Virus record (IMG/VR): IMGVR_UViG_3300037882_002341
Coordinates: 128,958 to 192,957 of that record
DNA from: a virus
Taxonomy: Duplodnaviria; Heunggongvirae; Uroviricota; Caudoviricetes
Length of the DNA: 64,000 nt
Direction: 5' to 3' (one strand)
The notes beneath the pieces are model-generated. The model was not told where the DNA came from, searched no databases, and saw only the letters and a program-made list of their open reading frames with translations. The position numbers were made by a program, and so were the translations under genes. Below are positions 1,732-49,290 of the stretch, piece after piece. The number at the start of each line of letters is the position of its first letter. The first letter of the stretch is position 1.

Positions 1732-1733
1732 CC

Positions 1734-6084: not shown

Positions 6085-6094
6085 ATTTTCCTAT

Positions 6095-19007: not shown

Positions 19008-19040
19008 ATCCCCTCGTTTTCAAAACAGAAATAGTACTAC

Positions 19041-20328: not shown

Positions 20329-20552
20329 TTTATTCTCTCCAACCTTGACCTAGGGAAAAAAGACTTAACAAGAAGTACAACACTACCTTCTTCCAACTTT
20401 GCTTTACTACCTCTTACTAGATTGATTTCTTCTACATCGAAAGGCAAACAGTCATCAGCTATTGCTTTTGGAAAGTTAGCCCTTGTAGCAATGACAACAT
20501 CTCTACCGCCAACAGTATTAATAAACTGATAAGCTAGTGGTTCATCTACCAT
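20310..20552 (-). CDS. hypothetical protein
   Basis: 80 aa. Confidence 0.3.
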   Translation of the reverse strand: MVDEPLAYQFINTVGGRDVVIATRANFPKAIADDCLPFDVEEINLVRGSKAKLEEGSVVLLVKSFFPRSRLERIKCLQKN

Positions 20553-21016
20553 TTTCTAGGATCCGAATCCGGGGTAAGAGTAAAACCACCGGACCCACTT
20601 CCCTTTCCAGAGAAGCCAGTGGGCTCACTCTCCTTTCCAGAGAGATCTGATGAATCTAGATCGGTCAGCTTCAAAGACGGAGTAGGGTCCGAGCGTATCT
20701 CTCGTGTTTCTTTTACTTCATCACTAGGATTCTCGGGTACTTTTTCTCTATCACCAAAAGACTCATTCGTGTTCCACTCTTCAAGAACAACCGCTACCCG
20801 AGGCTTTATGCCCTTTACAACATTAACAATCAGATATCTAATGTCTTTTACAAGAGCGCCATCGGCATCCTTTAACATCTTACGCAAGTGTTCTTCGGCC
20901 TCAACCGAACTTTTGTGTCCCATAGAAAAACAAGTCCAGTTAGCCTCGTTTACTATTTCAAGACCCTGGTACATAACAGCAAAGGTATTGGCGGGTTCCT
21001 CATTATCTTTTTGCAT
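20546..21016 (-). CDS. hypothetical protein (acidic, Ser/Gly-rich C-terminus)
   Basis: 156 aa. Confidence 0.4.
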   Translation of the reverse strand: MQKDNEEPANTFAVMYQGLEIVNEANWTCFSMGHKSSVEAEEHLRKMLKDADGALVKDIRYLIVNVVKGIKPRVAVVLEEWNTNESFGDREKVPENPSDEVKETREIRSDPTPSLKLTDLDSSDLSGKESEPTGFSGKGSGSGGFTLTPDSDPRKW

Positions 21017-21962: not shown

Positions 21963-23113
21963 GAGAATTCATCCTTCATTTTATAAGCAATAGACTCATA
22001 AGGATTTATAGAACAACTAGGGCGAGAAGCCATATGTGCAATAGCTTTTGCTATATCGGAAGAGTCAACCTGATACCAGAAACCTTCTCCATTAAAAAAT
22101 GGAGGGTCCTTGCCTAACTGAAAATTCCCACCTATACTTATCCTGTTAGAAAACCCAGTCTTGGCTTTAACAAAAGCATCATAGATACCAAAGAAATCAC
22201 TGCTTCCCGTAAGGCCAGTAGAAAGCGTTGGTATACCAAGACCAATAGATTCTCCTATTGGTAAACCCCAACCCTCACTCTTGGTTGGGAAGACCATTGT
22301 TCCAACCCCTTCCCAATCTTGAACCACATCCTCTTGCCATTTACTATGGCCGAGTATTTCTATACTACAACCCTTACCAAAGAAGTATTTCCCACCATGA
22401 TCTTTCCATTTTAAGGCAAGTAAATGGTTACGAAGACCATGGAGATTCCACCAGTTATGTCCCCAAAACTTAAAGTTAATATAAAGACCTTCAGCGTCAA
22501 GACTTTGCAGGGCATCTATTAATTCATAATGTCCTTTACGTCTTTCAAACTTACCCACAGTACCAATGGTAAGATTGGGATAACCATACACAGGGTCTTG
22601 TCTCTTGTGATCAAAATTAGCTATACCCTCTGGGACAACTTGCACCTTATAAAGATGATGAGGGAAACAATGATCAATTACCCTCTTGCCCCATATACTT
22701 GGAACCCAAATACGGTCAAATCTATCGAGTTTAACAAGCTCATTACGATAACTAAATTCTATGGTCTCATTCCCAGGATAATCTACTGGTATTAATTCAA
22801 ATACTGTATATGCAATAAGAGAAACACCCGTCTCAACAAAACTATAATTTTCATCAAACCACTGATTACATTTACGTGGTGTATCTAAAACAATAATTGC
22901 ATTAGGTTTTTCTGTAACATTCTGAGTTAGTAAGAATGAACCAATTCTCCTTGCTATATCTCTTTTGGTACTATAAGAAACAGTACCAATAGGACAGATT
23001 TGAAGCTTAAGCAAAGCAGATTCCGACAGTTGTATTAACTCATTAAGAAGATACTGAGCATGAGTACCTATACCGGTAGGATTAATAGGAGCATGGATTC
23101 TTACAGTAAGCAT
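21917..23113 (-). CDS. glycosyltransferase, GT-B fold (GT4-like)
   Basis: 398 aa; VFPTKSEGWGLPIGESIGLGIPTL is an E-x7-E type segment. Confidence 0.5.
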   Translation of the reverse strand: MLTVRIHAPINPTGIGTHAQYLLNELIQLSESALLKLQICPIGTVSYSTKRDIARRIGSFLLTQNVTEKPNAIIVLDTPRKCNQWFDENYSFVETGVSLIAYTVFELIPVDYPGNETIEFSYRNELVKLDRFDRIWVPSIWGKRVIDHCFPHHLYKVQVVPEGIANFDHKRQDPVYGYPNLTIGTVGKFERRKGHYELIDALQSLDAEGLYINFKFWGHNWWNLHGLRNHLLALKWKDHGGKYFFGKGCSIEILGHSKWQEDVVQDWEGVGTMVFPTKSEGWGLPIGESIGLGIPTLSTGLTGSSDFFGIYDAFVKAKTGFSNRISIGGNFQLGKDPPFFNGEGFWYQVDSSDIAKAIAHMASRPSCSINPYESIAYKMKDEFSWYKSAIEVVRLLGI

Positions 23114-30827: not shown

Positions 30828-31082
30828 CTATTCCTTTGGTCCCCAGGTAATATTACTAACAGAATAGATAGTATCCATCTTGATGTTATTGTGCCAAATC
30901 TCTACATTGTCAGAAACAACTCTGACTTCATACTCTGGATCAATAATATAGTCAAAACGTTGATGACCCTTATCTCGTACCTGGATAAGAATATACGATG
31001 TATCAGTAGGCTTGTACACAATAGGCACAGTGCTGGTACAAGCAGTAAGGATTAGAATAAAAGAAAGAAGAACCTTATACAT
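30828..31082 (-). CDS. putative lipoprotein
   Basis: 84 aa; N-terminal MYKVLLSFILILTACTS carries a signal peptide with a lipobox-like LTAC. Confidence 0.4.
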   Translation of the reverse strand: MYKVLLSFILILTACTSTVPIVYKPTDTSYILIQVRDKGHQRFDYIIDPEYEVRVVSDNVEIWHNNIKMDTIYSVSNITWGPKE

Positions 31083-31431
31083 TACACGCTCCCATTTGTT
31101 CCTTTACAAGACCCAGAACATTAGGGACAAGTATTCCATTATCAGGATTAAGAATATCTTCTGCAATTTCAGTAAATGTGTTTCCATGTTCATCATTTAA
31201 TGCAATAAGAGAATCCTGTGCATCTAAATTCAATCCCAGAGAATCTTGATCTTCTTTATCTAAACCAGTATCGTCCTCGCCATACCCTTTCTTTAAAACA
31301 ATCGCGGCAACACCAAGACAACAGTAGCTACCATCCTTTAAAGATAACAGTCCCTGTCCCTGCCTAAAATCTCCTGACTTTAATGCCTTAATCCATTTAA
31401 CAACATTATCTGCACGTTCTTGGTCAGTCAT
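31075..31431 (-). CDS. hypothetical protein, tandem paralog family B
   Basis: 118 aa; VKWIKAL-K/R-SG-D/K-F-R/K-QG-Q/H-G ... YCCLGVA is shared with 31615..32010. Confidence 0.4.
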   Translation of the reverse strand: MTDQERADNVVKWIKALKSGDFRQGQGLLSLKDGSYCCLGVAAIVLKKGYGEDDTGLDKEDQDSLGLNLDAQDSLIALNDEHGNTFTEIAEDILNPDNGILVPNVLGLVKEQMGACNV

Positions 31432-31614: not shown

Positions 31615-32010
31615 TTATTTGCTTACCTTCTTTCTGGACTTCTTAACGATACGACAACCAGACAAAAGCTTTGCGACACCAGGAGAGAACAGAGTGTCTT
31701 TGTTCTTGACGATGATATTAGCTATCTCCCAGAAATCCTCTCTATAAGTATCATTATCGACAACCAGTGAACTTGCCTCGGTACCCGATTGATAATCTCC
31801 CGAGGATGAATTAAGACCAAGAATTCTCCTGCCTCTTTCGCCTAATGAAAGACAAGTATCAGAAAGTCCTATATTTAAAACCTTATTAGCAACACCTAGA
31901 CAACAATATCCCAGACTACCTTTTAACTGACCATGACCCTGTTTAAATTTACCAGATCTTAATGCCTTGATCCATTTCTTAACATTATTAGCACGCTGTT
32001 GATTGTTCAT
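31615..32010 (-). CDS. hypothetical protein, tandem paralog family B
   Basis: 131 aa; paralog of 31075..31431. Confidence 0.4.
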   Translation of the reverse strand: MNNQQRANNVKKWIKALRSGKFKQGHGQLKGSLGYCCLGVANKVLNIGLSDTCLSLGERGRRILGLNSSSGDYQSGTEASSLVVDNDTYREDFWEIANIIVKNKDTLFSPGVAKLLSGCRIVKKSRKKVSK

Positions 32011-32931
32011 TTATCTTTCCTTTACACTAATAAGGTAGTCATAGATACTTTCAAAAACCAAGTCTATTGACATTGATGTTATATCTGTTTGAATTGTTGG
32101 GCTAGCCTCAAGACTCTTTTTACAGTCTGGTTTAAAATCTATAAACCTTCTCTTACCTAGTCCTTCGGCTACTACGTAGCAAGAGCTTGCACAACCAACA
32201 AAGCAATCCGATTGTTGAATATTAGTTGCGACATTCAAAAAGTCGCCACACTCTACATTAATATAATTACGCCAAAAATGTCTATCTTCCTCACTCCCTA
32301 TTACTTTGCACTTAATTTGCTTACTACGTAGCAGGTTTATGAGAGATACATAATCTGACTCATGTCTTGTTAATCTATGTTTTGGCAGATGGAAGACCAC
32401 ACTAGCAGGGTTTCTTATCTTGTTACTATTCTCAAGCCATGGAGTATCGGGAGACCAAGGGACATCCCAGTGAGCGGCATATCTCTTGGGTATTGATATA
32501 TTCCCTGGCCAATTAACACCATTCCACTCGGGGAACTTATCTGGATTGTAGTCCCCCTCTGCTCTGGTAAGGTTAAAAGTTACATCAGGAAAGCTCATAT
32601 CAGGAAACAGTGGATCAAAATCAAGAAAAGAGTATGGGGATCTCTTGTCTTCAGGTAAACTTAGCCAAGTTACCTTACCTATATACCACTGATCAAGTAA
32701 AAGAGGCGTAAGACTCTTTGCTGCTTCTTGAGACCATCCTCCTCGATGATAATCAGAAAGAATTACATGAGCTTTTCTCTGTAAGACATTAGATATCATC
32801 ATGACCGTATACATAGCGTAAAGACAATCTCCTAGTCTTCCACCATGATGAAATACAGCAAGGTCTTTATACATGACAAAAGAAATCCTCTGGAACAAGA
32901 ACCAAACAATAGGATATTTTCCCGTAGACAA
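32011..32931 (-). CDS. glycosyltransferase family 9-like (heptosyltransferase-like)
   Basis: 306 aa; N-terminal HHGGRLGDCLYAMYTVMMISNVL resembles the GT9 N-terminal SLGD-containing fold; weak call. Confidence 0.3.
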   Translation of the reverse strand: MSTGKYPIVWFLFQRISFVMYKDLAVFHHGGRLGDCLYAMYTVMMISNVLQRKAHVILSDYHRGGWSQEAAKSLTPLLLDQWYIGKVTWLSLPEDKRSPYSFLDFDPLFPDMSFPDVTFNLTRAEGDYNPDKFPEWNGVNWPGNISIPKRYAAHWDVPWSPDTPWLENSNKIRNPASVVFHLPKHRLTRHESDYVSLINLLRSKQIKCKVIGSEEDRHFWRNYINVECGDFLNVATNIQQSDCFVGCASSCYVVAEGLGKRRFIDFKPDCKKSLEASPTIQTDITSMSIDLVFESIYDYLISVKER

Positions 32932-33496
32932 GTGGTTAGAGGAAAATAAGAAAGACCATCCCTATGACCAAGACTACTTCAAAAAGTATGAGTACTATGC
33001 TAGCACACCTATGGGTGTCAGTATTACTCAAGCAAGACTAGATCTCATCTTGAAATACAATCCAGGTGAGATCCTAGACATAGGGATAGGCTCAGGGGCC
33101 TTTATGGATTTATGTAATAGTATAGGAGTAACAACATACGGTTATGATGTTAATCCTATTGCTGTTAATAAATTAGGTAAGATGTTTAGAGACCCAGAGT
33201 TGGGATTCTTTGATTCCCTTTCCTTCTGGGACTCTCTTGAGCATATGAAGAATCCTAGATCAGCTCTATTTGCAGCAGATAGGTTTGTATTCTTAACTAT
33301 ACCTATTTTTGAGGATCCGGATCATGCAAGGAGATCCAAGCACTTCCGACCAGACGAACACTACTGGTATCTAACCCATCATGGGTTAATAGATTTAATG
33401 TTTGCTTCTGGGTTCTATCTTGTGGAACACAATAGAATGGAAGAGGATCTTGGTAGAGAAGATGTTGGCAGCTATGTGTTCAGGAGAGGTCTGTAG
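32873..33496 (+). CDS. class I SAM-dependent methyltransferase
   Basis: Motif I EILDIGIGSGAFMDL, an acidic residue at the end of beta-2 (GYDVNP), motif IV-like DSLSFWDSLEHM; 207 aa. This is the only convincing plus-strand gene. Its 5' end overlaps the 5' end of the minus-strand gene 32011..32931. Confidence 0.65.
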   Translation: MTKEILWNKNQTIGYFPVDKWLEENKKDHPYDQDYFKKYEYYASTPMGVSITQARLDLILKYNPGEILDIGIGSGAFMDLCNSIGVTTYGYDVNPIAVNKLGKMFRDPELGFFDSLSFWDSLEHMKNPRSALFAADRFVFLTIPIFEDPDHARRSKHFRPDEHYWYLTHHGLIDLMFASGFYLVEHNRMEEDLGREDVGSYVFRRGL

Positions 33497-33731
33497 AATC
33501 TGGCTTCTCTCTTTCCTTTAGCCACTTCTTCCTGATCTTAATACCCTCTTTACAAAGATGATGATGCATGGAGGGATTGTCTTTAAGGTGCTTGCCTATG
33601 CCCCATGGCCAACAACAATAGACTCTATCCTGCTTTTTCTTTACTTTGTCAGGAGAGACTATTGCGATACCAATTTCTTTGAGATCGGAAACAAGATCAG
33701 AGTCTTCTTTTACTTTCTTTTCCAAGGCCAA
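33480..33731 (-). CDS. hypothetical protein
   Basis: 83 aa; Lys-rich with several Cys/His. Confidence 0.3.
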   Translation of the reverse strand: MALEKKVKEDSDLVSDLKEIGIAIVSPDKVKKKQDRVYCCWPWGIGKHLKDNPSMHHHLCKEGIKIRKKWLKEREKPDSTDLS

Positions 33732-33974
33732 CCCTCAGCCATCACCATTAAATAGAAGAGAAATGCACAAATTACTATTGCTCCGCAAACTGCTTCTGCA
33801 GTTGACATTGGTTCTCCCCAAAGATAAATAGTCTCTCCGAGTCGTCACCCGGTATGAGCCACACCTTTGATTCTATCCAGTCGATCTTGGTAGACTGTCT
33901 CTGTCGGCTACCAACCTGACAGATTAAGACCGGATCATTCTATGGGCCACTCTCATAGCCAATAAAGGCAGAGA

Positions 33975-34190
33975 CTATTTATCAGTACTCTTAAGTGTTC
34001 TGATCGAATACACAGCATGATCAATAAGATTTCTCAATCCTATTGCCTTATCTACGTCATACGAAATTTCAATATAAGAAGTTGTACCAGATTTGGTAAG
34101 AGTACTTATGTGTAATTTAATAAGCCTAGTAGATAAGCAAGAAGAGACTTCTAAAGAACCAGATACAGCTTCAAGGTTAGCATTACTCAT
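33975..34190 (-). CDS. hypothetical protein
   Basis: 71-aa ORF inside an ORF-poor region. Confidence 0.25.
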   Translation of the reverse strand: MSNANLEAVSGSLEVSSCLSTRLIKLHISTLTKSGTTSYIEISYDVDKAIGLRNLIDHAVYSIRTLKSTDK

Positions 34191-34454
34191 TTATTATAGT
34201 CTTTAGATGATAGTATCAGTTTAAAAATGATTGTTAAGACCGTGACAAATCCACCTATGAAACAACCAAGGAGAAAATCTGATAAGTTTTCACACATTTA
34301 TCCTCTCTCCACTAAAACAAGGCGCATCCTAATTTTGCCACAGCACCTACATTCCTTATACTGACAAGCACCATCAATTAACTTCCACTTACAATACTCA
34401 TGTATATGCAAGAAGCAAATAATACGCTCAAACCAGCTACCTCTGTCTTGCGTA

Positions 34455-35216
34455 CTAGTAACCTTTTCTGTCATCTATATCCCACATTCTAAAGGAACGA
34501 CCATCATTAAAAGGAGTTGAAAAGGTTTCAAGACCAGGTTGCCCACCCCACTTTAACCCATAGTAATAACGATTAGCTTCAAATGCCTTATTGGTAATAA
34601 CGGGAACCTGGGCAACACTGCTCTTAAGAGTCTGACTTCCTCTATGCCAATGAGGAACATTTGCCATATTGGCTGCAATAAATCCAGCAAGATGAATTCT
34701 ATGATGATAATCGTTATCTTCAAAACAACCAGGCTTAAAGTTCTCATCGAACCAACCCACTTCATCTATTGTTCTCTGTGTAATCATAAAACAAGAGAAG
34801 TCTGGTGAATCACCTTCTAGACTACCAACGTAGTCTTTAGGTGGTTTCATGTGTTCAAGACCATCTATGGTATGATCAAATCTCTCGTTACCCTTCTGTT
34901 GCCTAGCAGAGACGAGGATTACCTCATCACACTTATCTAAGCGCCGTGCCATATCATAGGCACCGCGAAAAACCAACATAGTATCATCATTGGTTATTAG
35001 AACGTGTGAGCAACCAGCCTCAAGAGCCTGCTTGGTACCCTCATTCCAAGAAACGGCCACACCACGATTAAAATTCCAGTTATCAAGGATAACGGGGAAT
35101 ACTGTTGTCCCAAGCAGGGAACGTATAAGTTCACAGTATCCTCTGAAGTTATTCAATACAGGCGTAACTAATCCTATCTTCATCTCTGTCTTCGGCAAAG
35201 AATTATGAGAATTCAT
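34455..35216 (-). CDS. glycosyltransferase family 2-like
   Basis: 253 aa; N-terminal Rossmann-like VTPVLNNF ... HVLITNDD gives a DxD-type motif. Confidence 0.45.
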   Translation of the reverse strand: MNSHNSLPKTEMKIGLVTPVLNNFRGYCELIRSLLGTTVFPVILDNWNFNRGVAVSWNEGTKQALEAGCSHVLITNDDTMLVFRGAYDMARRLDKCDEVILVSARQQKGNERFDHTIDGLEHMKPPKDYVGSLEGDSPDFSCFMITQRTIDEVGWFDENFKPGCFEDNDYHHRIHLAGFIAANMANVPHWHRGSQTLKSSVAQVPVITNKAFEANRYYYGLKWGGQPGLETFSTPFNDGRSFRMWDIDDRKGY

Positions 35217-35220
35217 AATA

Positions 35221-35255
35221 GAAACTTTCCCCAGAATTTTTTATCACGTTTTTGG
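35221..35255 (-). promoter_or_regulatory. conserved ~34-nt intergenic motif, copy 2
   Basis: Plus strand GAAACTTTCCCCAGAATTTTTTATCACGTTTTTGG, near-identical to copy 1; on the minus strand it ends 4 nt upstream of the ATG of 34455..35216. Confidence 0.35.
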
Positions 35256-35256
35256 C

Positions 35257-36366
35257 CTATAAGGAGTTCCACTTATTAACAATTTCAATAATTCTGGTTT
35301 GATCTTGATCTGTTACCCACCAACCACAAGGTATAGCAACATTTCTTGCAGAGAAATAATCTATGCCTTTCCTATCTTCAGGAGACTCTGTCTTTGGTGG
35401 GAAACAAGGATGTCTATCGTTTCTTGCGTGTACAGGAGAGGCAGCAATATCGTGGACTTCTAGATACTTAATAAAAGCGTCTCTGTCTTCTACTAAAATA
35501 GTATAAATCCAGTAAGAAGAACGAGCATCATATAGAGGAACATAAACAACCCTCTTTCCAATTGCTAGTTCCTCACTATATCTCAATGCCTGTATTTGAG
35601 AATCAAAAACAGACAGCACCGCTTTGGTCATATTGGCTATACCAATAGCCGCAGCAATATTGTTCATTTGGAACTTAAAGCCAGATTCACCAATAGTTTG
35701 GCTACAGCGGAAGTTTTGACTACTCTTCCTGTCTAGACCATACCACTTAAGAAGCTCTGCTCTCTTTTCCATTCCGACAGGAACAACCAAGGCTCCGCCA
35801 TCACCAGTAGTGAGATGTTTAATGGCCTGAAAAGACCATGCTACATAATCCCCACCAGTATTAGAGATATGCTTACTTTTATATAAAGTAAGGAAGGAAT
35901 GGGCAGCATCCTCGATTATCGGTATGCCAGAAGCCACTTTCCTAATCTCATCATAATCTACAGGTGTACCACCCCAATCTACGCAAAGAATAGCTCTTAC
36001 CCTCTCTCCGTATTTATCGATAAGCTTACCAACAGAGTCTGCTGTAATATTTCCAGTAAACTGATCTACATCTGCCCAAAGTATCTTCCCACCTCTACTA
36101 ATAATAGCAGTATTAGAGGCTGTGCAAGTTTGCGGTGTGCTAATTACATAATCATCTTTTACTTCACACATGTGAAGAGCTAGTTCAAGAGCGCTAGTAC
36201 AACTATTGAGAGCTAATACTCTTCTTTCGCTTTGCCAATAAGATTTAAGTCTACTTTCAAATAGTTCTACCCACTCACCCTCACCAATGTAGCCAGACTT
36301 TAATACTTCAGCAACATTAGATAGACACTCTTCTGTTTCTACATTAACTTTAAAAAGTGGTATCAT
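35257..36366 (-). CDS. DegT/DnrJ/EryC1/StrS-type PLP-dependent sugar aminotransferase
   Basis: 369 aa; DYVISTPQTCTASNTAI and WSFQAIKHLTTGDGGALV with the PLP-binding Lys are typical of this family. Confidence 0.7.
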   Translation of the reverse strand: MIPLFKVNVETEECLSNVAEVLKSGYIGEGEWVELFESRLKSYWQSERRVLALNSCTSALELALHMCEVKDDYVISTPQTCTASNTAIISRGGKILWADVDQFTGNITADSVGKLIDKYGERVRAILCVDWGGTPVDYDEIRKVASGIPIIEDAAHSFLTLYKSKHISNTGGDYVAWSFQAIKHLTTGDGGALVVPVGMEKRAELLKWYGLDRKSSQNFRCSQTIGESGFKFQMNNIAAAIGIANMTKAVLSVFDSQIQALRYSEELAIGKRVVYVPLYDARSSYWIYTILVEDRDAFIKYLEVHDIAASPVHARNDRHPCFPPKTESPEDRKGIDYFSARNVAIPCGWWVTDQDQTRIIEIVNKWNSL

Positions 36367-37319
36367 TATTTACCATCTATTCTCATGCGACCGCATGAAG
36401 GATTCCATCCAGGATACCAAAATCCACCTTTTCTTATATGCTGATGCTCAATTTCCTGATTAGGCTTAACTCTAAGAGGGATAAATCCAGTCTCGAGAAA
36501 CATCTTATGGAAATCCTTCTCAGATTCTATATAAGTCTGACTTCTCTCATTATCCTTACTATAGGCTATGCCTCTCCCATCAAGAAAATCTCTACAGAGC
36601 TTTGCGGCATTAGGTATTCCACCCGCAATGCCACCAGAAAAGTGGTCACAAGAGATACCATTCACAGCAATCCACTTACCAGCTTTTAAGATCTCACAGC
36701 ACAAGATTCGATCATAAAAGTGCTCTGGAGCAAGATTTCCCTCTTGTGGAGTGGTATGAGCAACTAGATCAGAGGTACGGAATATTAGAGAGCAATGATC
36801 CAATACCGCAGCAGCAGCTAAGCCTGCCTCTCTTCTGCCATGTTGTTCCGCTTTCGAAGCCTGACCAATACCAGGATAAAAGGCCCCCAGGTAATTGAGC
36901 ATAGTGCCACCGCCTCTGCCACCACGCTCATCAATCTCATTAGATCCAACAAATCCCTGGAGAGCAAGTTGAGGATAGTTATCAAATGCATTTATGACTT
37001 TCTTGTCCCAACCCTTTTCACGGATATAAAGATCACAGTGGAGGAATGCCAAGAATTCTGGAATATCATTACCAAACCAGCGACCTTGTCTCCAACGATG
37101 GAAAACAGCATTTCCTCCAATGTTTTCTTCATATCTAATGATCTTAGTATTTCTAGACCACTCAAAATGGCTATACGGTGGCTCGCTTCCATTATCCACT
37201 AAGTAAACTTCTGTTAACTCTGGATCAGAGTTAGCTAAAGCATACCTGGTAGCCTCTGGAGTCTGAATAAAATTATTTACACCATAGATAACAACTACCA
37301 TACGCGGACTAGTCATCAA
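36366..37319 (-). CDS. glycosyltransferase family 2-like
   Basis: 317 aa; VVVIYGVNN ... YLVDNGSEPP resembles the GT2 N-terminal DNGS region. Confidence 0.4.
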   Translation of the reverse strand: MMTSPRMVVVIYGVNNFIQTPEATRYALANSDPELTEVYLVDNGSEPPYSHFEWSRNTKIIRYEENIGGNAVFHRWRQGRWFGNDIPEFLAFLHCDLYIREKGWDKKVINAFDNYPQLALQGFVGSNEIDERGGRGGGTMLNYLGAFYPGIGQASKAEQHGRREAGLAAAAVLDHCSLIFRTSDLVAHTTPQEGNLAPEHFYDRILCCEILKAGKWIAVNGISCDHFSGGIAGGIPNAAKLCRDFLDGRGIAYSKDNERSQTYIESEKDFHKMFLETGFIPLRVKPNQEIEHQHIRKGGFWYPGWNPSCGRMRIDGK

Positions 37320-38244
37320 TGGTCACTTTCCGATGATTAACTGGAACAAACTTAATCTTCTTTTTCTTAAGCATAAATACGAAAAAGTCCTGAAGCATGG
37401 GATTTTTCATATCCTTAATATAAGTTCTATGCTCAACATTAAACTTACTGACAATTGACAGAAGAAGATTTTCATCTATACCAGTAGAAAACCTAAAGTC
37501 CAATATAGCATCTTGCCATATCTTTCGTTTTTCTACTGATTCCCCTGGTTTATAAGGAGGTCCTAGTTTTCCAGTTAAATCCTTAGCAGGATTACCTCCC
37601 CAAACTTGATCTGGACCCATCCCCTTGGTTAGATTAGATTCTGTAAGTGCCACAGAATAGCTTGAATGGTACACAGGGGCGCTTGTACATCTGCCTACAA
37701 GCCAAACATCATCTCCAGCACAGAATCCCTTGCTGAGATCATGATATACACATCCATGGAGGACATCACCATGAGCAATATGCCCCCACATGTGTGTATC
37801 TTGTCCTGCGCCAAAGTTGTTTCCCACTTCCCAATATTCACCTTCACAATCCAAAGTACAGCGCATGCCAAACCAAGAATTATGTCCAATTACACAATGA
37901 GATCTACCGTAAACAAAAACATCTTTATGAATGGTGACATAGTCACCACACACAAAGGTGGACGGAGCGATCAAACCACCATAAATAACGGTTCCATCAC
38001 CAATCACAAGTTTTTCAATAGGATTGTTTGGTGTACCAAAAGTAGTATCAGGTGACACAAGAGCAAAAGGAGATATTCTTATATCAGCATAAGGAAAAGC
38101 ATGTAAATTGGTAATAAAACTAAGACCACCACCCGTTATTCTATGTCTAATCTGCCAAACATTATTATTAGAGTATTCTATAGCTTCTACTTTAAGAGGA
38201 GGAGTGAGCATAGTACTAGCTCCCAGAAACAATAGGGGCGCCAT
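37309..38244 (-). CDS. left-handed beta-helix (hexapeptide-repeat) acyl/acetyltransferase
   Basis: 311 aa; repeated small-residue hexads across the middle (for example VIGHNSWFGMRCTLDCEG and GDDVWLVGRCT) and C-terminal VWGGNPAK typical of sugar O/N-acetyltransferases. Confidence 0.45.
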   Translation of the reverse strand: MAPLLFLGASTMLTPPLKVEAIEYSNNNVWQIRHRITGGGLSFITNLHAFPYADIRISPFALVSPDTTFGTPNNPIEKLVIGDGTVIYGGLIAPSTFVCGDYVTIHKDVFVYGRSHCVIGHNSWFGMRCTLDCEGEYWEVGNNFGAGQDTHMWGHIAHGDVLHGCVYHDLSKGFCAGDDVWLVGRCTSAPVYHSSYSVALTESNLTKGMGPDQVWGGNPAKDLTGKLGPPYKPGESVEKRKIWQDAILDFRFSTGIDENLLLSIVSKFNVEHRTYIKDMKNPMLQDFFVFMLKKKKIKFVPVNHRKVTIDD

Positions 38245-40446: not shown

Positions 40447-40685
40447 TAAAAGAGATCAGAATCTTTATTTGGCCGATACTCAAAGAACGCAAGACAAGTA
40501 TCGGATACAAAGAATCTTTCACACGAACTACATTTGGCATATCTTCCATTTAAGTCGTGTACTACTTCTTCAAATTCGCTAGCACCAGGTTCTAGTTGAT
40601 AACAGATGGAACAGCAAGGTTGGTTTAAAGGATTGGTAGCATTCGGAGCATGACCACATTTCATTAGGCGCTGAGGTAAAGTCAT
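40422..40685 (-). CDS. Cys-rich zinc-finger protein
   Basis: 87 aa with 10 Cys. Confidence 0.35.
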   Translation of the reverse strand: MTLPQRLMKCGHAPNATNPLNQPCCSICYQLEPGASEFEEVVHDLNGRYAKCSSCERFFVSDTCLAFFEYRPNKDSDLFYCGCRGWN

Positions 40686-41161
40686 TTTATCTTTATCTCA
40701 AATGTCAAGGCCACACTTTCTAAAGACACATTAGCCTCATTGAACATTAAGCTAGTAATCATCTGGTCCTGTTCCCATGCACCACTAGCACCAGAACCAA
40801 ATGTTCCGTCTGCATTGACCACAACTCTTGTAATTCCACTTTGGATAATAGATTTTGCACACTCTTTGCAAACAAATACCTTGTTACAGTATAGAGTTGC
40901 ACCAACTGGTCTTATTTGACAAAGATCAATAGCATTTCTCTCTGCATGAGCAACCAACTGATATTTCAATGGTCTATCTTTATATCTTTCTACTAAGTCT
41001 TCTACACCTCTAGGAAATCCATTAAAACCAGTTGACAGTACCTTATTGTCCTTTGTGAGGATAACTGCTCCGACCTTTGTACTAGGGTCCTTGCTCTTAA
41101 AAGAGACCACTTCAGCTAAAACAAGACCATATTCGTCCCACGTAAGAGCTCTATCAAGCAT
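40682..41161 (-). CDS. deoxycytidylate (dCMP) deaminase
   Basis: 159 aa; zinc motifs HAERNAI and CNKVFVCKECAK (PCxxC-type) with the allosteric-type spacing of phage/bacterial dCMP deaminases. Confidence 0.65.
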   Translation of the reverse strand: MLDRALTWDEYGLVLAEVVSFKSKDPSTKVGAVILTKDNKVLSTGFNGFPRGVEDLVERYKDRPLKYQLVAHAERNAIDLCQIRPVGATLYCNKVFVCKECAKSIIQSGITRVVVNADGTFGSGASGAWEQDQMITSLMFNEANVSLESVALTFEIKIK

Positions 41162-41723
41162 ATCTTCTCTCTAAATTTATATAATGGAAAAAGTCTTTTG
41201 CGCATTGTGCAAGATCATCTAATGTCCCATTATTAACAACTTCATGATCCCAGTCTTCCCAAGTATCCAGAGCCATATCAAATGAATCAGAAGAGTCACT
41301 TTCGATACCTGGTCTCTCGATCTTAATAAGTAGGCCATGATTTTCTCGAATATACGCAGCTTCATTGGGAAATCTCATATTAGTAATAATGGTGATCTGG
41401 TCGGGTGGCGAAGAAGCTATCAAACTCTTGATCATTGTGTCAGGATCAATTGATCTACACAAATTAGCTAAGCCCTTAGCTATAGTTCTAGGTGTTATAC
41501 CTTCTAGCTTTGCCAGATCTACATCTTTTTGTTCATAAAAAGAATTATAGTATTCTGCATTTCCAACACCAGCCCAGCCAAATAAGAGATTTGCAGCATT
41601 AAAAAGAGGATCTGATATTGATACCTTTCTTACTCTAACTCCATATTCCTTACACCTAAGCATAAGAAAATTAGCAAAGGTATCCTTACCCACATTTTTC
41701 TTATGGCCTAAACCTATAATCAT
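41154..41723 (-). CDS. deoxynucleoside monophosphate kinase (T4 gp1-like P-loop kinase)
   Basis: 189 aa; N-terminal MIIGLGHKKNVGKDTFANFL parallels T4 gp1 LIFLSGVKRSGKDTTADFI; coupled to the dCMP deaminase gene. Confidence 0.5.
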   Translation of the reverse strand: MIIGLGHKKNVGKDTFANFLMLRCKEYGVRVRKVSISDPLFNAANLLFGWAGVGNAEYYNSFYEQKDVDLAKLEGITPRTIAKGLANLCRSIDPDTMIKSLIASSPPDQITIITNMRFPNEAAYIRENHGLLIKIERPGIESDSSDSFDMALDTWEDWDHEVVNNGTLDDLAQCAKDFFHYINLERRYA

Positions 41724-41839: not shown

Positions 41840-43411
41840 CTACTTACGAATACGTTCTTTTACAAAATTACTAGCTTTGAGCTCTACTCTAGGAGAAGTG
41901 GACTCGGGTACATTGGCCGGAACAGTAATACCTTGTTCAGGTTCACAAAGATCAGAGAAATCCTTAACCGTTTCTTCAACAACAGAACCCTTACCCATTA
42001 GACTTGCAACACCTGCTGTTCCAAGACTTCTACCACGAAGAGAGTTATTAGATGCATAACGAAGAGAATTTCCTGTACTTACTTTATAAGATTGTGCAGT
42101 AAGGTCAGAACCAACTTGTGCACAATTCTGAAGAGCATGAGAAGCAAGAGCAGAACCTCTTGCTTCTAAATTCTTCCAATTAACTTCGACAGCACCACAA
42201 TAGACTTTTGCACCAGCCCAGTCTTGCAGATCAGCTTTAACAGAAGCTTCTAGATAAGCTTTGGCTGTTGTCAAAATAGCTAATTGCTCTGCAACAGTTA
42301 AATCAGATTCTTTATCAGCATCCTCTGCCTTAACATAAGAGACTTTAACAACTTCTTCTGTTTTATTAACAACTGCATCAATAACATTAAACCATGACAC
42401 AGTTAGACTTACAACAGTTGAGGCTCTTGGCTTAGCAGTGGGTACAGCAGGTAAGCTAAGCTTGATTAGAATATGTTTAGTTTCACCAGCATAGATATCA
42501 TCTACAGTAATAACCGCATTACCGTTAAGATCCTCGACCTTAAAATCATTAAGAATCTCAGAGACCTTAACGTCCTTATTAGGCTTAATGGTTAACTTGA
42601 TATTCTGCGCAACACAAGAAATAGCACCACCAAGCTCTTCAGCAAAAGCATCTCTAACCTGGTCAGCACTCTCAATATAATGATAGTTCCCACCACCTGC
42701 TTTTGCCATATCGGCCAAAAGTTCTTGATCTGCTGCATTGCCAAAACCAAAAGTACTAACTACAGTATTACTAGGTTTGGCAGAACAAATCTTAAGAAGA
42801 CCGTCTCTACTAAATTCTCCATGATTAGCATGACCATCGGTCATCAGGAGAATTCTTGTGGAACCAACAAAATCAGGTTTAACCTGTTCATAACCACTTA
42901 AAATACCACTTGAAGTATTTGTCATACTTCCAGGACGTATTTGAGAGATAGCAGCAAGAGCTAGATGCTTATTCTTAGCGTCTGTATTAGCACAAACAGT
43001 ATTACTAATACTATCAAAAGCTATAACGCTGATCCGATCCCCATCGTGAAGATACTCAACTAGCTTGTTGGCAACTTCCCTCATTACATATAGCTTAGTT
43101 TTGAAGTCATATGGGAATTTTGTATTTGATACCGATACGCCACTAACACAAGGTTCTCCCATTGAGCCAGATACATCAAGAACAAGTACGATCTGAACCG
43201 GTACTCTCTTATTAGCCTCTAGGCTAGGAGCGGTAACAGAAACCATAAGATGGTTTTCTTTAGCGACTGTGCGATCTACCTTTGAGAACTCCATACGTGT
43301 ACGAAACTGCAGACTATCAGACATTTGTTTTTCCTTATTAGGGTCTGTGAAGTCTATTATCCTTTCTGGTGGGCTCCTCAAGCCCCTACATACAGGAAAC
43401 AAGTACTTCAA
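41840..43411 (-). CDS. VWA-domain protein
   Basis: 523 aa; MIDAS VLVLDVSGSMG, further DGHANHG and TFGFG segments. Confidence 0.55.
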   Translation of the reverse strand: MKYLFPVCRGLRSPPERIIDFTDPNKEKQMSDSLQFRTRMEFSKVDRTVAKENHLMVSVTAPSLEANKRVPVQIVLVLDVSGSMGEPCVSGVSVSNTKFPYDFKTKLYVMREVANKLVEYLHDGDRISVIAFDSISNTVCANTDAKNKHLALAAISQIRPGSMTNTSSGILSGYEQVKPDFVGSTRILLMTDGHANHGEFSRDGLLKICSAKPSNTVVSTFGFGNAADQELLADMAKAGGGNYHYIESADQVRDAFAEELGGAISCVAQNIKLTIKPNKDVKVSEILNDFKVEDLNGNAVITVDDIYAGETKHILIKLSLPAVPTAKPRASTVVSLTVSWFNVIDAVVNKTEEVVKVSYVKAEDADKESDLTVAEQLAILTTAKAYLEASVKADLQDWAGAKVYCGAVEVNWKNLEARGSALASHALQNCAQVGSDLTAQSYKVSTGNSLRYASNNSLRGRSLGTAGVASLMGKGSVVEETVKDFSDLCEPEQGITVPANVPESTSPRVELKASNFVKERIRK

Positions 43412-43904: not shown

Positions 43905-44675
43905 TTAGGATAGAGGATAAAGGATGTAATCCTTCATAGGACCAAAGATACGTTTCTGTTCAATTGCATGGCAGTTAGCGCGTGCTCTAGCTTCAACAAC
44001 GGCGTTCTTAAGCTTAATAGCTCTCTCAATAAGTTCAGACTTCTGATGTGTAGTGGGGAGACTAGTCCACTGATACTTAGTAACATTACCAACAACTACA
44101 TCCTTAACCTGCTTAACCACCTGAGCAGCATGTTCTTTAGTAGCAGGAACAACCGTAAGGAACTCCTCAATCTTCGAGGTTCTATGCCTCACGATGGGAC
44201 TAGCCTGAAGAACATTAGCTCCCATACTGTTATCAGGAGCAAATCCCATTGCAGGATCAGCTGTAGGAATGCTCTCAATGAGCTTAATAATCTGATTGAA
44301 TCGCTTTTCAAGATGAACAAGGAAGGTAGAGGGAACTCCTGTAGCGAATACCTCTCCATCAACAACAATATCTGCTTTAGCTTCACAGTTAGCAAGATCA
44401 ATAGTATGCAGAAGATCAATAGTTTCCGCAAACTTATTAAAAATAAAGCCAGCTTCCTTAGCAACAGTCGTTACTAAAGGAGTTTCATCTTCAACAACAG
44501 GCTGAGCTAACTCTCCCTCTTTCTCACTGTTAGGAGTAAATACAGTCTTACTCTTCTTAAAGAGCTGATGCTTATCCTTAAAGGTGCTCATATGCTCCTT
44601 TAACAGAGCATCAATCTCACCCTCTTTAGTGGTCTTAACAGCGAGAAGTTCATGAAGCTTACTACTCTTTGCCAT
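43905..44675 (-). CDS. hypothetical protein
   Basis: 256 aa. Confidence 0.4.
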   Translation of the reverse strand: MAKSSKLHELLAVKTTKEGEIDALLKEHMSTFKDKHQLFKKSKTVFTPNSEKEGELAQPVVEDETPLVTTVAKEAGFIFNKFAETIDLLHTIDLANCEAKADIVVDGEVFATGVPSTFLVHLEKRFNQIIKLIESIPTADPAMGFAPDNSMGANVLQASPIVRHRTSKIEEFLTVVPATKEHAAQVVKQVKDVVVGNVTKYQWTSLPTTHQKSELIERAIKLKNAVVEARARANCHAIEQKRIFGPMKDYILYPLS

Positions 44676-44781: not shown

Positions 44782-45807
44782 TTATTTTGAAATCTCCTTT
44801 AGATCAAGAAGCATGGTAGGCGAACCGGACATCACAACACCTGGAACTGTACCAGCCCACTTCTGAATCTGATGAAGTTGAAGGACTCGTGCTCCGTCTG
44901 TCCCAGACAGAGATTCTGCAAGACGCAAGTTTGCATTTGCCTCTGCCGTAGAAGTTGCGGTGCGGTAGTAGGCATCTGTATCAGCTTTTGCCGTAAACGT
45001 TACGGTACGGTGATAAGCTTCTGCATCAGCCTTAAGTCGCTGAGCATCTGCAGCACCACGCGCTGCCTCAATTGCGGCGTCTGCTACGCCTGCTGCTTGA
45101 GCTTTAGTAATTTCTGCCTGTTTCTCTGCTGACTGAAGCTCATACGTCTTCTGAAGAGCACGCTGTTCCTGAACCTGTTTTTCTTCAATTGCTTTTGTAT
45201 AATCATCAGAGAAGTCAATATTCCGCATACTAACTTCAACAAGCGCAATACCGTATTTCCCCAACCATTCTGCTATATCAGCCTGAATTGCATCTTTAAT
45301 TGAAGCCCGATTCTGAAGAATCTCAGAGGCATTGTGGTTTGCCATTTCGGCTTTAGCCACTTCCTGTTCCGCATTCGGTATAATAACAGAAGCCCAGTCA
45401 ATACCGATTTCACGGTAAATACGCGGAGCCGTTGCTGCAGTAAGACGGTAGTTTGAGCCAAGGATAAGATTTACTTCCTGTAAATCCTTTGAAGCTGCAG
45501 CAAGATTATCTTCACGAGCTTGGACCTGCACATTCATCTTAACAACATTAACAAGTGGATTGATGAAATGTGCACCAGCCTCAAGTGGAGTGTCTTCTAC
45601 ATCGCCAAAAAGCACCACAACACCGACATGACCAGCTGGAACAGTGGTCCAGCTTGCTATAGTGACAAGTACGATAGGTGCGATTGAGCCCACACCGTAA
45701 AAAATCTTACCGCCGATACGCTCGGCCGGATCCTTTGATCCAGTTAACTTTTTCCCAACAGGAAAACAAATAGCAACTAACAAAAGAGCAACTATCAGTA
45801 AGATCAT
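44782..45807 (-). CDS. SPFH/band-7 family membrane protein (HflC/prohibitin-like)
   Basis: 341 aa; N-terminal TM helix MILLIVALLLVAICF, SPFH core, Ala/Glu/Gln-rich coiled-coil C-terminus. Confidence 0.6.
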   Translation of the reverse strand: MILLIVALLLVAICFPVGKKLTGSKDPAERIGGKIFYGVGSIAPIVLVTIASWTTVPAGHVGVVVLFGDVEDTPLEAGAHFINPLVNVVKMNVQVQAREDNLAAASKDLQEVNLILGSNYRLTAATAPRIYREIGIDWASVIIPNAEQEVAKAEMANHNASEILQNRASIKDAIQADIAEWLGKYGIALVEVSMRNIDFSDDYTKAIEEKQVQEQRALQKTYELQSAEKQAEITKAQAAGVADAAIEAARGAADAQRLKADAEAYHRTVTFTAKADTDAYYRTATSTAEANANLRLAESLSGTDGARVLQLHQIQKWAGTVPGVVMSGSPTMLLDLKEISK

Positions 45808-45986: not shown

Positions 45987-46018
45987 TGGTGGACCCGGGG
46001 GGTATCGAACCCCCGTCC
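45987..46018 (-). other. orphan tRNA 3'-end-like minihelix (GGAC / T-arm / CGG-GTCC-A-CCA)
   Basis: The minus strand reads GGAC-GGGGG-TTCGATA-CCCCC-CGGGTCC-A-CCA. It has a T-arm, an acceptor 3' strand and an encoded CCA. No canonical 5' half lies upstream; only a 4-nt GGAC can pair with GTCC. Confidence 0.4.
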
Positions 46019-46426
46019 TGAGTTCTTTCTAATTATCTTACTACACGTTTATCTACTTTTAAGTTGTAGCAAACTTGGGGTGTAGAACACCTCCACCAGG
46101 ATCTTTAATGTCATATCCAAGACATACTGCATTTAAGACATACCCACACTTGTATCCATGGTAGGGGTCACCACGTGTTCCCGAAGGAACAAGTCCAATT
46201 AGGCACAGAGAGCGAGCTTAGACGAGCGATAGTCGCTCATCTTGAACACAGGGGTGTTACCACCCCAGCTTGCAGCAAACTCACTGGCGGTCATCGGAGC
46301 CACATCCTTGATGTTGGCAGATAGTTTTCCCTATCATTTTTAACGTGGCCAAGATAGGATCCACGACGTGCAAGATAAATCGAACAGAACCAGTCGATTC
46401 CAGTCGGGCCCTTTATTTCAAAGAAG

Positions 46427-47717: not shown

Positions 47718-47792
47718 TGGTGCCCTTAGTAGGATTTGAACCTACAAAAACAGCTTAGAAGGCTGTCGTTTTTCCAATTAGACTATAAGGGC
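47718..47792 (-). tRNA. tRNA-Arg (anticodon UCU), CCA encoded
   Basis: Cloverleaf: acceptor GCCCTTA/TAAGGGC 7/7, D-arm GTCT-AATTGGAA-AAAC, anticodon arm ACAGC-CTTCTAA-GCTGT, T-arm GTAGG-TTCAAAT-CCTAC, discriminator A and CCA; 75 nt. Confidence 0.8.
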
Positions 47793-47799: not shown

Positions 47800-49290
47800 T
47801 TAGTTAGCTAATAATCTCTCTCTAATTTCACCAAGAGTACATTCACGTACCATGATTCCATTACTATAAACAAGTTTAAGTAAACCACCAGGTTCTTCTT
47901 CAAGTGAGCATTGATCTATGACAAAGAAGTTTCCTTCATCATCCTGTTCTACACAGAGTAAACCGGTTGCGGATTTCTTGTCACCATTATCAGTAATTGG
48001 ATCTTTACTAAGATTTCTTTGTTCACCATTAACAATACCAAAGGTGGTCTTAATGGCAAATCCATGTGTATCTCTAGTTACATATTGATATGTATAACTA
48101 CCGATACCAAGAACTATATTACTAGAACAGAATCCCTTTAACATAAGCCCATGTAAAATGTCTTCTGCTCTAGTATAGTTTATGGCATCGCCATATATTA
48201 GACCAACTCTTGGATTCAGAACACGGAACCCTGCTGAATTAACCGCCCCACCAAAAGTTTCCCAGAGACACTGTATAGCCCCTTTAAAAGCGGGACTACC
48301 GGGTTCTGCACCGGAATCACCAAGGACTATTTTAACAGGATCTCCAGAATCGGGTCTAAAGACTACTTTAGCAAAACCTAATTCATTAGGTTTTCTTGCC
48401 AAAATCTCTTCTCTTAAAATATTAGCTGTACTAGTAATAACATTCCAGAAATTCCAGGTGTCGGAAACAATAGAAACAATACCTGTAGGGTTAACCTTAG
48501 TAATAATCCTACGGATAGTTTCTATTTCATTGTTTCTCTCTCCCATGCACATAACAGAATGTTCTGTTGCGGGTACACTTCCACCTATAAACTGAGTTCT
48601 TCCATAGTAGTAGTCTTCTAGATAATCTATAGCAGGAATAGTATCTGTACCAAGGAAGGAAAGCAAGTGTGCTGCGCCGGATTTTGCAGCATCCTCAATA
48701 CCACTCATGCCACGGAAACTAAAGTCATGTCCCTGAAAAGGAACAAATTCTTTAGAACCACCAGTCAAGTTTGCATAGTGATCAAAGAGTAATCTAAATT
48801 TATAGGCAGTTGTTGCACTGGTCGTCATTTTCCAGAGTTCTGCAGAAAGAGCAGTCTCTAGATAATTAACTAACCAGTAGAAATCAGAATGAGTATTATG
48901 AATAGTAAAGAGAGGAACATTAATGTTAACTCGAGAGCCTTCGGGTAATGCAGAAATAGAGATAGGTAGATAACCAAGCTTATGTAAAGCAAGGATATGA
49001 TCTACCTTAACTACTCCTTGACCAAGACTGGAATTCATTCTTCTAAGATAGCGATCTCTTATGTCCTGTGCGGGTAATGCAAAGAACTCTTTTCCCCATT
49101 TATCTATTAAGAGATCCTTTATTACACCTTGCAATCCAAAGAAAACAACTTTATCTCCCAATAGACCAGGATCAGAGTGTCTATTGGATCTAGGAGTAAA
49201 GTTTGAGTAGACGAATTGCGTTCCATCTGGATACTGATAGATATGTCCAGACTTATAGAAATCAATAGCACTTTCAGGACGAATTCTCAT
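47800..49290 (-). CDS. nadV: nicotinamide phosphoribosyltransferase (NAMPT/NadV)
   Basis: 496 aa; N-terminal [25 protein letters not shown] parallels NAMPT [33 protein letters not shown] ... [10 protein letters not shown] and [11 protein letters not shown] match NAMPT active-site segments. Confidence 0.75.
   Translation of the reverse strand: [496 protein letters not shown]

Follow-up and report, generated by a model that had tools for sequence, protein, structure and literature searches.

The stretch of DNA considered here (IMG/VR virus record IMGVR_UViG_3300037882_002341, positions 128,958 to 192,957; 64 kb, hereafter the window) is part of a genome record of about 193 kb, about 130 kb of which lie outside our view. 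At positions 32011-38244 of the window there is an island of genes that an initial annotation had described as a contiguous set for amino-sugar and glycan biosynthesis. The list of open reading frames (ORFs) contains all six genes it named, and the motif strings quoted for them (WSFQAIKHLTTGDGG, YLVDNGSEPP and VWGGNPAK) are all present in the island. On the minus strand the order is an ORF of 311 amino acids (aa), followed by ORFs of 317, 369 and 253 aa, a spacer, and an ORF of 287 or 306 aa (32011-32874 or 32011-32931); the sixth gene, for a methyltransferase, lies on the plus strand. The first four genes encode a left-handed beta-helix (LbH) acyltransferase, a glycosyltransferase of the GT2 type (GT2b), an aminotransferase of the DegT family and a second GT2-type glycosyltransferase (GT2a). 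Judging by their similarity and order in other phages, they form a conserved mobile four-gene cassette, which is the main new result of this report.

The first cassette gene (37309-38244, minus strand, 311 aa; the JGI gene call gives 300 aa, with the start at Met12, near position 38211) encodes an LbH (hexapeptide-type) acyltransferase with a C-terminal helical domain. The earlier reading of this gene as a hexapeptide acetyltransferase holds as regards the VWGGNPAK string and the beta-helix fold; it is not accompanied by a Pfam match of its own, as the protein itself gives no Pfam hexapeptide match and its Vat matches are weak (5e-4). Its family comprises about 65 metagenome proteins of about 280 aa, the more distant of which carry PF00132 or PF14602, and the family profile matches maltose O-acetyltransferase (4.5e-11), QdtC and VioB. 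The AlphaFold model (AF2, pLDDT 94.8) is a left-handed beta-helix followed by a C-terminal helical domain, and Foldseek matches it at probability 1.0 to LpxA, NeuO/OatWY, the N-acetyltransferase Pcryo_0619 and AntD. His95, His144, His147 and the GNPA motif are invariant in the family alignment. By its modelled fold the protein is an acyltransferase.

The third gene (35257-36366, minus strand, 369 aa) encodes a DegT/DnrJ/EryC1/StrS-family, pyridoxal phosphate (PLP)-dependent aminotransferase of nucleoside diphosphate (NDP)-keto sugars. PF01041 is matched over residues 10-363 with 206.5 bits (cut-off 19.8; E 8.8e-61). The Schiff-base lysine of the SFxxxK motif, which is the criterion parting the aminotransferases from the dehydratase members of the DegT family, is conserved: SFQAIKHLTTGDGG is aligned with SFQALKHLTCGDGG of the solved aminotransferase 4zwv. 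The PLP aminotransferase call, including the lysine motif quoted as WSFQAIKHLTTGDGG, is thus borne out by both the Pfam match and this alignment. Full-length alignments were obtained with PDB entries 4zwv/4xau (2.8e-58), which are AtmS13 of the AT2433 aminopentose pathway, and with CalS13 (4zas, 6e-44), followed by ArnB, PseC and PglE-type enzymes. These best relatives presumably all aminate C4 of an NDP-4-keto sugar, which is suggestive only as regards the position of amination; from the alignments, DegT most likely acts at C4 of an NDP-keto sugar. The NCBIfam equivalogs are far below their cut-offs (PseC 164 of 423.5 bits, ArnB 123 of 631, WecE 118 of 375), which keeps the assignment at the level of the family.

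The two glycosyltransferases are probably of the GT-A type. GT2b (36366-37319, minus strand, 317 aa), which carries YLVDNGSEPP, scores 23.2 bits against PF13712 (E 6.6e-5), under the cut-off of 27 bits; many of its 172 homologues have PF13712 or PF00535, and the DNGS and HxD motifs are invariant among them. GT2a (34455-35216, minus strand, 253 aa) is the last and most divergent gene of the cassette. It has no Pfam match; it matches PHROG glycosyltransferase families (phrog_29879 at 4e-22 and phrog_2456 at 1.5e-10), its family alignment shows conserved NxD and FDExF...EDxD..R motifs, and the homologue in contig L028 carries PF00535. Single-sequence searches of PDB gave nothing useful for either protein, and profile searches gave weak GT-A matches only, those of GT2a being to chondroitin synthase. 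The two GT2-type calls of the initial annotation are probable, for GT2a from PHROG and the motifs and for GT2b from the Pfam domains of its homologues.

The cassette was traced by synteny in a set of uncultured phage contigs (designated by L and a number; L029 and L030-L037 are IMG/VR contigs). A sister lineage (L019-L021, contigs of 35-100 kb) has the four genes in the same order and at the same site, between the genes for a VWA protein, a deoxynucleoside monophosphate (dNMP) kinase and a dCMP deaminase on one side and those for DnaE and a helicase on the other; the identities are 61% (LbH), 69% (GT2b), 66% (DegT) and 58% (GT2a). Since this lineage has only these four and neither the methyltransferase nor the gene at 32011-32874, we consider the four genes to be old residents of the locus and the other two a later addition.

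More distant copies (26-55% identity) are located in the head modules of unrelated smaller phages (six contigs), in the order DegT-LbH-GT2b-GT2a. In L026, L027, L029 and L039, terminase and portal genes are followed by the cassette and then by the genes for a GT4 glycosyltransferase, the prohead protease and the major capsid protein, with the GT4 gene of L027 overlapping the start of the protease gene. In L022 and L023 the genes for the decoration protein and the major capsid protein come first, followed by three others and then by GT4, RmlB, DegT, LbH, GT2b and GT2a. A GT4 gene thus usually accompanies the cassette, and a dTDP-glucose 4,6-dehydratase does so in these two contigs; this RmlB-type neighbour matches solved dTDP-glucose 4,6-dehydratases at 5e-49. 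GT2b adjoins the LbH gene in every locus examined, and for 35 of 64 close LbH homologues the length of the longest contig is the same as that of a listed GT2b homologue, which is an indirect sign of pairing. A more distant module of the composition RmlB-GT2-LbH-DegT is found in the IMG/VR contigs L030-L037.

Two of the contigs have further features of their own. L037 encodes at 19015-19950 a full FtsZ/tubulin homologue (PF00091 at 1.2e-44, FtsZ_C at 5e-29), after which comes another GT2. L028 (88.8 kb) has, at 357-6374 and 19502-20900, two tandem GT2b homologues, a cupin sugar isomerase, short-chain dehydrogenases/reductases, a PhyH dioxygenase, DegT and GT2; this sugar-tailoring block, a much larger island, lies between two genes of about 2,000 aa without known domains and includes GMP reductase and ThyX.

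That phages carry glycan genes was already known. We believe that the defined mobile amino-sugar cassette, an acyltransferase family invisible to Pfam and the recurrent insertion beside capsid genes are new, and our literature search found no paper describing the cassette.

The remaining two genes of the island diverge from each other. The plus-strand gene (32873-33496, 207 aa) encodes a class I S-adenosylmethionine (SAM)-dependent methyltransferase: PF13489 is matched with 49.7 bits (cut-off 27; E 4.4e-13), phrog_6564 at 2.9e-51, and SAM motif I is present as ILDIGIGSG at residues 67-75, so that the identity proposed earlier is confirmed by the profile and the motif. We presume that it methylates a sugar. 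It is also, as had been claimed, the lone credible plus-strand gene when ORFs of at least 70 aa not covered by a longer minus-strand ORF are considered; the other such ORF in the window is one of 90 aa at 50174-50446. The CATG palindrome at 32872-32875 holds both ATG codons, that of the methyltransferase on the plus strand and that of its neighbour on the minus strand, and leaves no promoter space between them. A scan for sigma-70 promoters and terminators around the island gave fewer sites than shuffled sequence and is uninformative on the plus-strand gene.

The minus-strand neighbour (32011-32874), whose start is most likely at 32874 (287 aa, the JGI call), is a GT-B fold protein resembling the GT9 heptosyltransferases. 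The epithet "GT9-like" is upheld at the level of the fold and fails at the level of the sequence family: the protein has no Pfam, NCBIfam or PHROG match, and a sequence search of PDB with its family profile (55 representatives in a set of 1.8 billion proteins) was empty, while the best Foldseek matches of its AF2 model (pLDDT 90.6) are 3tov, WaaC (2gt1/2h1f), WaaF (1psw) and TibC (4rap), a protein heptosyltransferase, with E from 4e-7 to 3e-5 and TMq of 0.54-0.63. The best viral match of the model is a 467-aa phage protein named "Methyltransferase FkbM", which is probably a fusion of a glycosyltransferase with a methyltransferase.

Homologues of the methyltransferase with 36-45% identity occur in a D3-like Pseudomonas phage, in Enterobacter phage Mulvp2 and in the Klebsiella jumbo phage Eowyn. 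In these three loci the methyltransferase gene follows and overlaps a gene for a protein of about 280-296 aa, annotated as GT-B or GT9 in several D3-like records, and in the cultured phages PP9W2 and Mulvp2 the pair sits inside structural modules. Homology between our GT9-like protein and these partners was sought by BLASTP and hhalign with negative results (probability at most 3%); the resemblance is one of size, fold class and gene pairing only.

As to the contiguity of the island, it is not strict. The first three genes do abut or overlap (the LbH and GT2b ORFs by 11 nt as listed, and the GT2b stop codon overlaps the DegT start), but the spacer at 33497-34454 (958 bp) interrupts the series with two small unassigned minus-strand ORFs, 33975-34190 (71 aa) and 33480-33731 (83 aa). 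The search of the spacer gave no Pfam or PHROG match for these ORFs and no Rfam match, and the sister lineage lacks them. The island is followed immediately downstream by two paralogous small minus-strand genes, 31075-31431 (118 aa) and 31615-32010 (131 aa), whose common N-terminal motif matches phrog_18067, a family of unknown function.

Overall, the enzyme assignments made earlier survive the profile, structure and synteny tests, and no island protein was found to have an unrelated fold. The enzyme families are supported, that of the GT9-like protein by fold alone; for the aminotransferase, no NCBIfam equivalog comes near its cut-off. The maximum 19-residue Kyte-Doolittle mean among the island proteins and the GT4 enzymes of the window is 1.49, and none of them has a segment long enough for a membrane span.

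Three GT4 genes outside the island had also been pointed out, and Pfam supports them, the third weakly and below threshold. The gene at 3146-4462 (minus strand) encodes a GT4 enzyme of the GT-B fold that matches PF00534 at 9.5e-11, above the cut-off; that at 511-1731 (minus strand) matches PF13692 at 3.6e-8 and PF00534 at 9.6e-7, also above the cut-offs. The GT4-like gene at 21917-23113 (minus strand) is just under the cut-offs with PF00534 (3.2e-5; 24.0 against 26.4 bits) and PF13692 (5.8e-5), and matches NF041876 (EpsE) at 1.7e-5. The 3146-4462 protein aligns over most of its length to the GT4 proteins of the head modules (L027 at 1e-10, L022 at 5e-8, 20-21% identity), and we regard it as the most likely equivalent of the GT4 found alongside the cassette in other phages.

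The two GT4 genes within 511-4462 (minus strand) flank an RNase T/DnaQ-like exonuclease gene (1734-2291) and two unassigned small genes. The 3' end of the 21917-23113 gene overlaps by 46 nt a gene similar to uracil-DNA glycosylase (UDG) genes (region 21003-23113, minus strand); the UDG-like protein has 319 aa, with a family-4 UDG/UdgX-like domain and an N-terminal extension of about 110 aa.

We are fairly certain that the island encodes an amino-sugar glycosylation module. Its starting substrate would be an NDP-4-keto-6-deoxyhexose, most simply dTDP- or UDP-4-keto-6-deoxy-D-glucose, presumably supplied by the RmlA/RmlB pathway of the host or through a gene located outside the window. DegT would turn it into an NDP-4-amino-4,6-dideoxyhexose, where both the position of amination and the kind of sugar are suggested by the closest solved relatives and the RmlB neighbours in related phages, and LbH would acylate the new amine from acyl-CoA, the sole pointer to N-acylation being the constant adjacency of DegT. 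Transfer of the amino sugar and of other sugars to the acceptor would then fall to GT2a and GT2b, which are soluble, together with a GT4 and, in this phage, also the GT9-like GT-B protein; the methyltransferase may cap one of the sugars. The initial annotation took an aminotransferase with an acetyltransferase as a hallmark of N-acetylated amino-deoxy-sugar synthesis; this is strengthened by the RmlB-type neighbour in the relatives, while the labels "bacillosamine-type" and "QuiNAc-type" attached to it are an analogy only.

The acceptor would most likely be a virion protein or several of them, whether of the capsid, the decoration or the fibres. Synteny favours this target, since the six contigs described above have the cassette embedded in the head-morphogenesis operon. 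The pairing of the methyltransferase family with a GT-B-type gene inside the structural modules of PP9W2 and Mulvp2, the solubility of the enzymes and the precedents in mycobacteriophages and Mimivirus point the same way. We give about an even chance to the whole proposal, namely, that the module produces an NDP-4-acylamino-4,6-dideoxyhexose and that virion proteins receive a methylated glycan from it. The chance left over by the virion, the host envelope and DNA, the latter two being discussed below, falls to other targets.

A number of points weigh against this proposal. The 64-kb window contains no sugar 4,6-dehydratase (tblastn and the Pfam inventory) and no nucleotidyltransferase (the Pfam inventory). 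With no dehydratase in the window, the keto sugar has to be provided by the host or by genes in the part of the genome outside our view. Host supply is plausible, dTDP-4-keto-6-deoxyglucose being the RmlB product of the widespread rhamnose pathway, and the dependence is not peculiar to the window, since L026 and L027 are also without a dehydratase beside the cassette. The best sequence matches of the LbH profile are O-acetyltransferases. Ser/Thr-rich C-terminal tails of the kind known in mycobacteriophages were not seen on the cassette-adjacent capsid proteins. In the window and in the sister lineage the cassette is away from structural genes, between dCMP deaminase/dNMP kinase and DnaE; the distant module of L037 (a 94-kb phage contig) adjoins DnaE, RecA, RuvC and GMP reductase, and in L028 the DegT-GT2 genes are near GMP reductase and ThyX. 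The roles of the enzymes are predicted for every member from sequence, fold and synteny. Finally, genes inserted in late operons may also be morons acting on the host.

The last point leads to a different acceptor. The enzymes could divert host nucleotide sugars and alter the sugars on lipid-linked intermediates of lipopolysaccharide, capsule or teichoic acid, with the supposed effect of changing a receptor, blocking superinfection or keeping the progeny from being trapped on cell debris. The close solved or named relatives of the island enzymes (WaaC/WaaF, ArnB, PseC, VioB, QdtC, EpsE-like) all belong to surface-glycan or natural-product sugar pathways, which agrees with such a role, and structural operons of temperate phages are a known insertion position of host-acting morons. 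The lack of membrane spans is compatible with it as well, since peripheral enzymes of the GT2, GT4 and GT9 families are soluble even when their acceptor is anchored in the membrane; and Flavobacterium phage immuto has a comparable island away from its capsid genes. However, the Pfam inventory and hydropathy reveal no flippase, polymerase, initiating phosphoglycosyltransferase or Gtr/Oac-type membrane protein in the island or the window, and no integrase or repressor is among the Pfam matches of the window, i.e., there is no sign of lysogeny. In addition, four loci have the cassette and its GT4 gene in close packing with the genes for the prohead protease and the capsid, all in one orientation, which would mean late expression and little time for remodelling of the envelope. 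We therefore regard envelope remodelling as unlikely, although it is the stronger of the two other targets considered.

The surroundings of the cassette in the window make it tempting to propose that the glycan is added to a modified base and shields the genome from host nucleases. The cassette is here in a region of replication and nucleotide metabolism (dCMP deaminase, T4 gp1-like dNMP kinase, DnaE, helicase), the three GT4 genes are beside the UDG-like and DnaQ-like exonuclease genes, and the related modules of L037 and L028 adjoin, respectively, DnaE/RecA/RuvC/GMP reductase and ThyX. The pairing of the GT4-like gene with the UDG-like gene is the best lead to a DNA-directed role. It is known that GT-A and GT-B phage enzymes build diverse glycans on 5-hydroxymethylcytosine (5hmC; bioRxiv 10.1101/2023.12.21.572611) and that phage DNA may carry arabinosyl chains on 5-hydroxycytosine (PMC13326640). 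In such pathways a thymidylate-synthase homologue or a TET-type dioxygenase is usually encoded nearby (bioRxiv 10.1101/2023.12.21.572611; PMC13326640); but among the window ORFs of at least 120 aa (64 of about 193 kb) the Pfam inventory includes no thymidylate-synthase homologue, TET/JBP dioxygenase or C5 cytosine methyltransferase. Moreover, in the six head-module contigs the same cassette sits between genes for the portal and the capsid, an unexpected place for DNA modification. Our literature search found no amino-sugar modification of DNA, and we know of none. DNA hypermodification is thus somewhat less likely still than envelope remodelling. Its specific form, in which the cassette and the GT4 enzymes encoded beside the UDG-like and exonuclease genes would put an N-acylated 4-amino-4,6-dideoxyhexose glycan on phage DNA, with the base-activating enzyme encoded in the unseen part of the genome, is more doubtful again.

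All of the above presumes that the window is viral. The window contains no capsid, portal or terminase gene, and this would agree with a host chromosome or another non-viral element in which the island is an ordinary bacterial surface-polysaccharide locus. Against this, the 64 kb are almost strictly on one strand, densely packed and composed mostly of genes without known families; there is no ribosomal or other housekeeping operon; and the GC content is even (0.35-0.45), with no distinction of the island. The replication and repair genes of the window encode a DnaE-type polymerase, an SF2 helicase, RecA, the family-4 UDG-like protein, the DnaQ-like exonuclease, an RNA ligase and an HNH endonuclease; those of nucleotide and NAD metabolism encode NAMPT, a phosphoribosyl pyrophosphate (PRPP) synthetase-like protein, two deaminase-family proteins, a T4 gp1-like dNMP kinase and an NADAR protein; and MoxR, VWA and SPFH proteins and split RNA polymerase beta- and beta'-like subunits are encoded as well. 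DnaE, RecA, the split RNA polymerase, NAMPT with PRPP synthetase, dNMP kinase and HNH endonuclease, together with the PHROG matches, are a phage-typical set. Terminase, portal, protease and capsid genes are present on the contigs that carry the closest relatives of the cassette, and one of these is an IMG/VR viral contig. The island itself is flanked by phage-type genes rather than host genes (dCMP deaminase/dNMP kinase upstream, DnaE/helicase downstream); given these flanks and the same locus in a related phage lineage, the island is neither host chromosome nor a recent capture. A non-viral origin is, in our opinion, very improbable.

The phage has no cultured close relative detectable in 50,697 phage records, against which megablast of the island and tblastn of the RNA polymerase beta-like protein both gave no match. 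The latter result indicates a deeply divergent phage lineage. The split multisubunit RNA polymerase is encoded by adjacent genes (50348-53955, minus strand) with weak matches to Rpb2 domain 6 and Rpb1 domain 2. The "moraphage" jumbo-phage lineage (PMC12619734) was considered and ruled out, as moraphages are without RNA polymerase genes.

Other features of the window are as follows. A transfer-messenger RNA (tmRNA) is located at 45987-46411 (minus strand) between an SPFH/Band-7 gene and an HD-domain gene; it is a full-length match to Rfam RF00023 (113 bits, E 2e-43), and ARAGORN gave no tmRNA. Phage-encoded tmRNA is unusual except in very large phages. There are genes for tRNA-Arg(TCT) at 47718-47792 and tRNA-Met(CAT) at 60785-60861 (both minus strand). 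An NAD salvage pair consists of the NAMPT-like gene (47800-49290) and the adjoining PRPP-synthetase-like gene (49287-50117), both on the minus strand, and the NADAR-domain protein is encoded at 62257-62706. Two separate genes of the cytidine/dCMP deaminase family are found in the one window, 40682-41161 and 59819-60244 (minus strand), the former adjoining the T4 gp1-like dNMP kinase gene (41154-41723). The genes for the MoxR-type AAA ATPase (13002-14534) and the VWA-domain protein (41840-43411), both on the minus strand, are 27 kb apart, and such proteins normally act as a pair; the VWA gene is next to the genes for a DUF7873 protein (43905-44675) and the SPFH protein (44782-45807), and the VWA/DUF7873 arrangement is kept in the sister lineage. 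PADLOC defence models matched none of the glycosyltransferase, UDG, MoxR, VWA and SPFH proteins.

Experimental evidence for glycosylated virions of tailed phages comes so far mainly from mycobacteriophages with simple glycosyltransferase sets, and giant viruses are known to encode enzymes that make rare amino sugars for the surface of the particle. If the virion-directed proposal is true, there are phages in the environment that synthesise a rare N-acylated amino sugar themselves and cover their virions with it; the covering might influence host recognition, stability, adhesion to mucus or particles, and recognition by antibodies. The cassette enzymes, namely, the LbH family invisible to Pfam and the AtmS13-like aminotransferases, are new compact tools. 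If the target were DNA, the modification would be of a new class.

Among the known systems, serotype conversion or O-antigen modification by Gtr, Oac and Wzy/Iap modules depends on an integral-membrane transferase, flippase or polymerase, families which are absent from the Pfam matches of the window. Phage DNA hypermodification (T4 glucosyl-5hmC, the glycosyltransferases linked to 5mYOX and ThyS, arabinosyl-5-hydroxycytosine) is similar in having soluble GT-A and GT-B enzymes among genes of nucleotide metabolism; it differs in that the window has no base-activating enzyme, amino-sugar tailoring enzymes are not reported there, and the cassette is elsewhere found in head modules. The D3-like Pseudomonas phages (D3 orf12/orf13), Mulvp2 and Eowyn share with the window a homologous methyltransferase gene beside a gene for a protein of about 280-296 aa. 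In contrast to the window, their partner protein has no detectable similarity to the GT9-like protein, and the two genes are in tandem there and divergent here.

The cultured Flavobacterium phage vB_FspM_immuto (MW353176) combines in one block glycosyltransferases, two DegT-type aminotransferases (34% identity), a methyltransferase and an NDP-sugar epimerase/dehydratase, along with a PglD-like "pilin glycosylation protein". Detectable similarity to our proteins is confined to the aminotransferase, and the gene content and order differ; the immuto island, with a function that is itself predicted, is analogous and non-orthologous.

In mycobacteriophages, the capsid and tail-tube subunits are glycosylated, according to the passages of PMC12619734 and PMC12691614 that refer to Freeman et al. 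2023. The likeness is in the presence of glycosyltransferase genes in a tailed phage, together with the position of our cassette in the head module of six related contigs. Methyltransferases reportedly take part there as well, in genes said to adjoin the structural ones. To our knowledge, the mycobacteriophage systems use host-made sugars and carry neither an aminotransferase nor an acyltransferase. There is no detectable sequence relationship between the two systems, and the window genes are not beside structural genes.

The bacterial pathways to NDP-4-amino-4,6-dideoxyhexoses (RmlB with VioA/VioB, WecE/WecD, PglE/PglD or Per/PerB, and the actinomycete AtmS13 and CalS13) are close in the enzymes themselves. 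DegT aligns end to end with AtmS13 (4zwv) and CalS13, LbH shares the fold of VioB, QdtC, AntD and Pcryo_0619, the RmlB neighbour in the relatives matches solved RmlB, and the predicted chemistry resembles that of the viosamine or Fuc4NAc type. In contrast, the window genes are phage-borne, lack Wzx/Wzy and lipid-carrier enzymes, and score below the equivalog cut-offs.

With that of the mycobacteriophages, the nearest parallel is the system of Mimivirus, in which the UDP-glucose 4,6-dehydratase R141, the PLP aminotransferase L136 and the N-acetyltransferase L142 make N-acetyl-viosamine for the fibres (PMC4691112). Mimivirus is a giant virus of eukaryotes rather than a tailed phage, its cassette architecture is different, and the dehydratase is missing from our window; the LbH proteins form a separate family of about 280 aa without a Pfam match, and our glycan is predicted from genes alone. 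Nevertheless, both viruses encode an aminotransferase, an acetyltransferase and several glycosyltransferases, with a dehydratase also present in the relatives of this phage; the predicted chemistry, from a 4-keto-6-deoxyhexose through the 4-amino to the 4-acetamido sugar, is the same, and the virion surface is the target proposed here as well.

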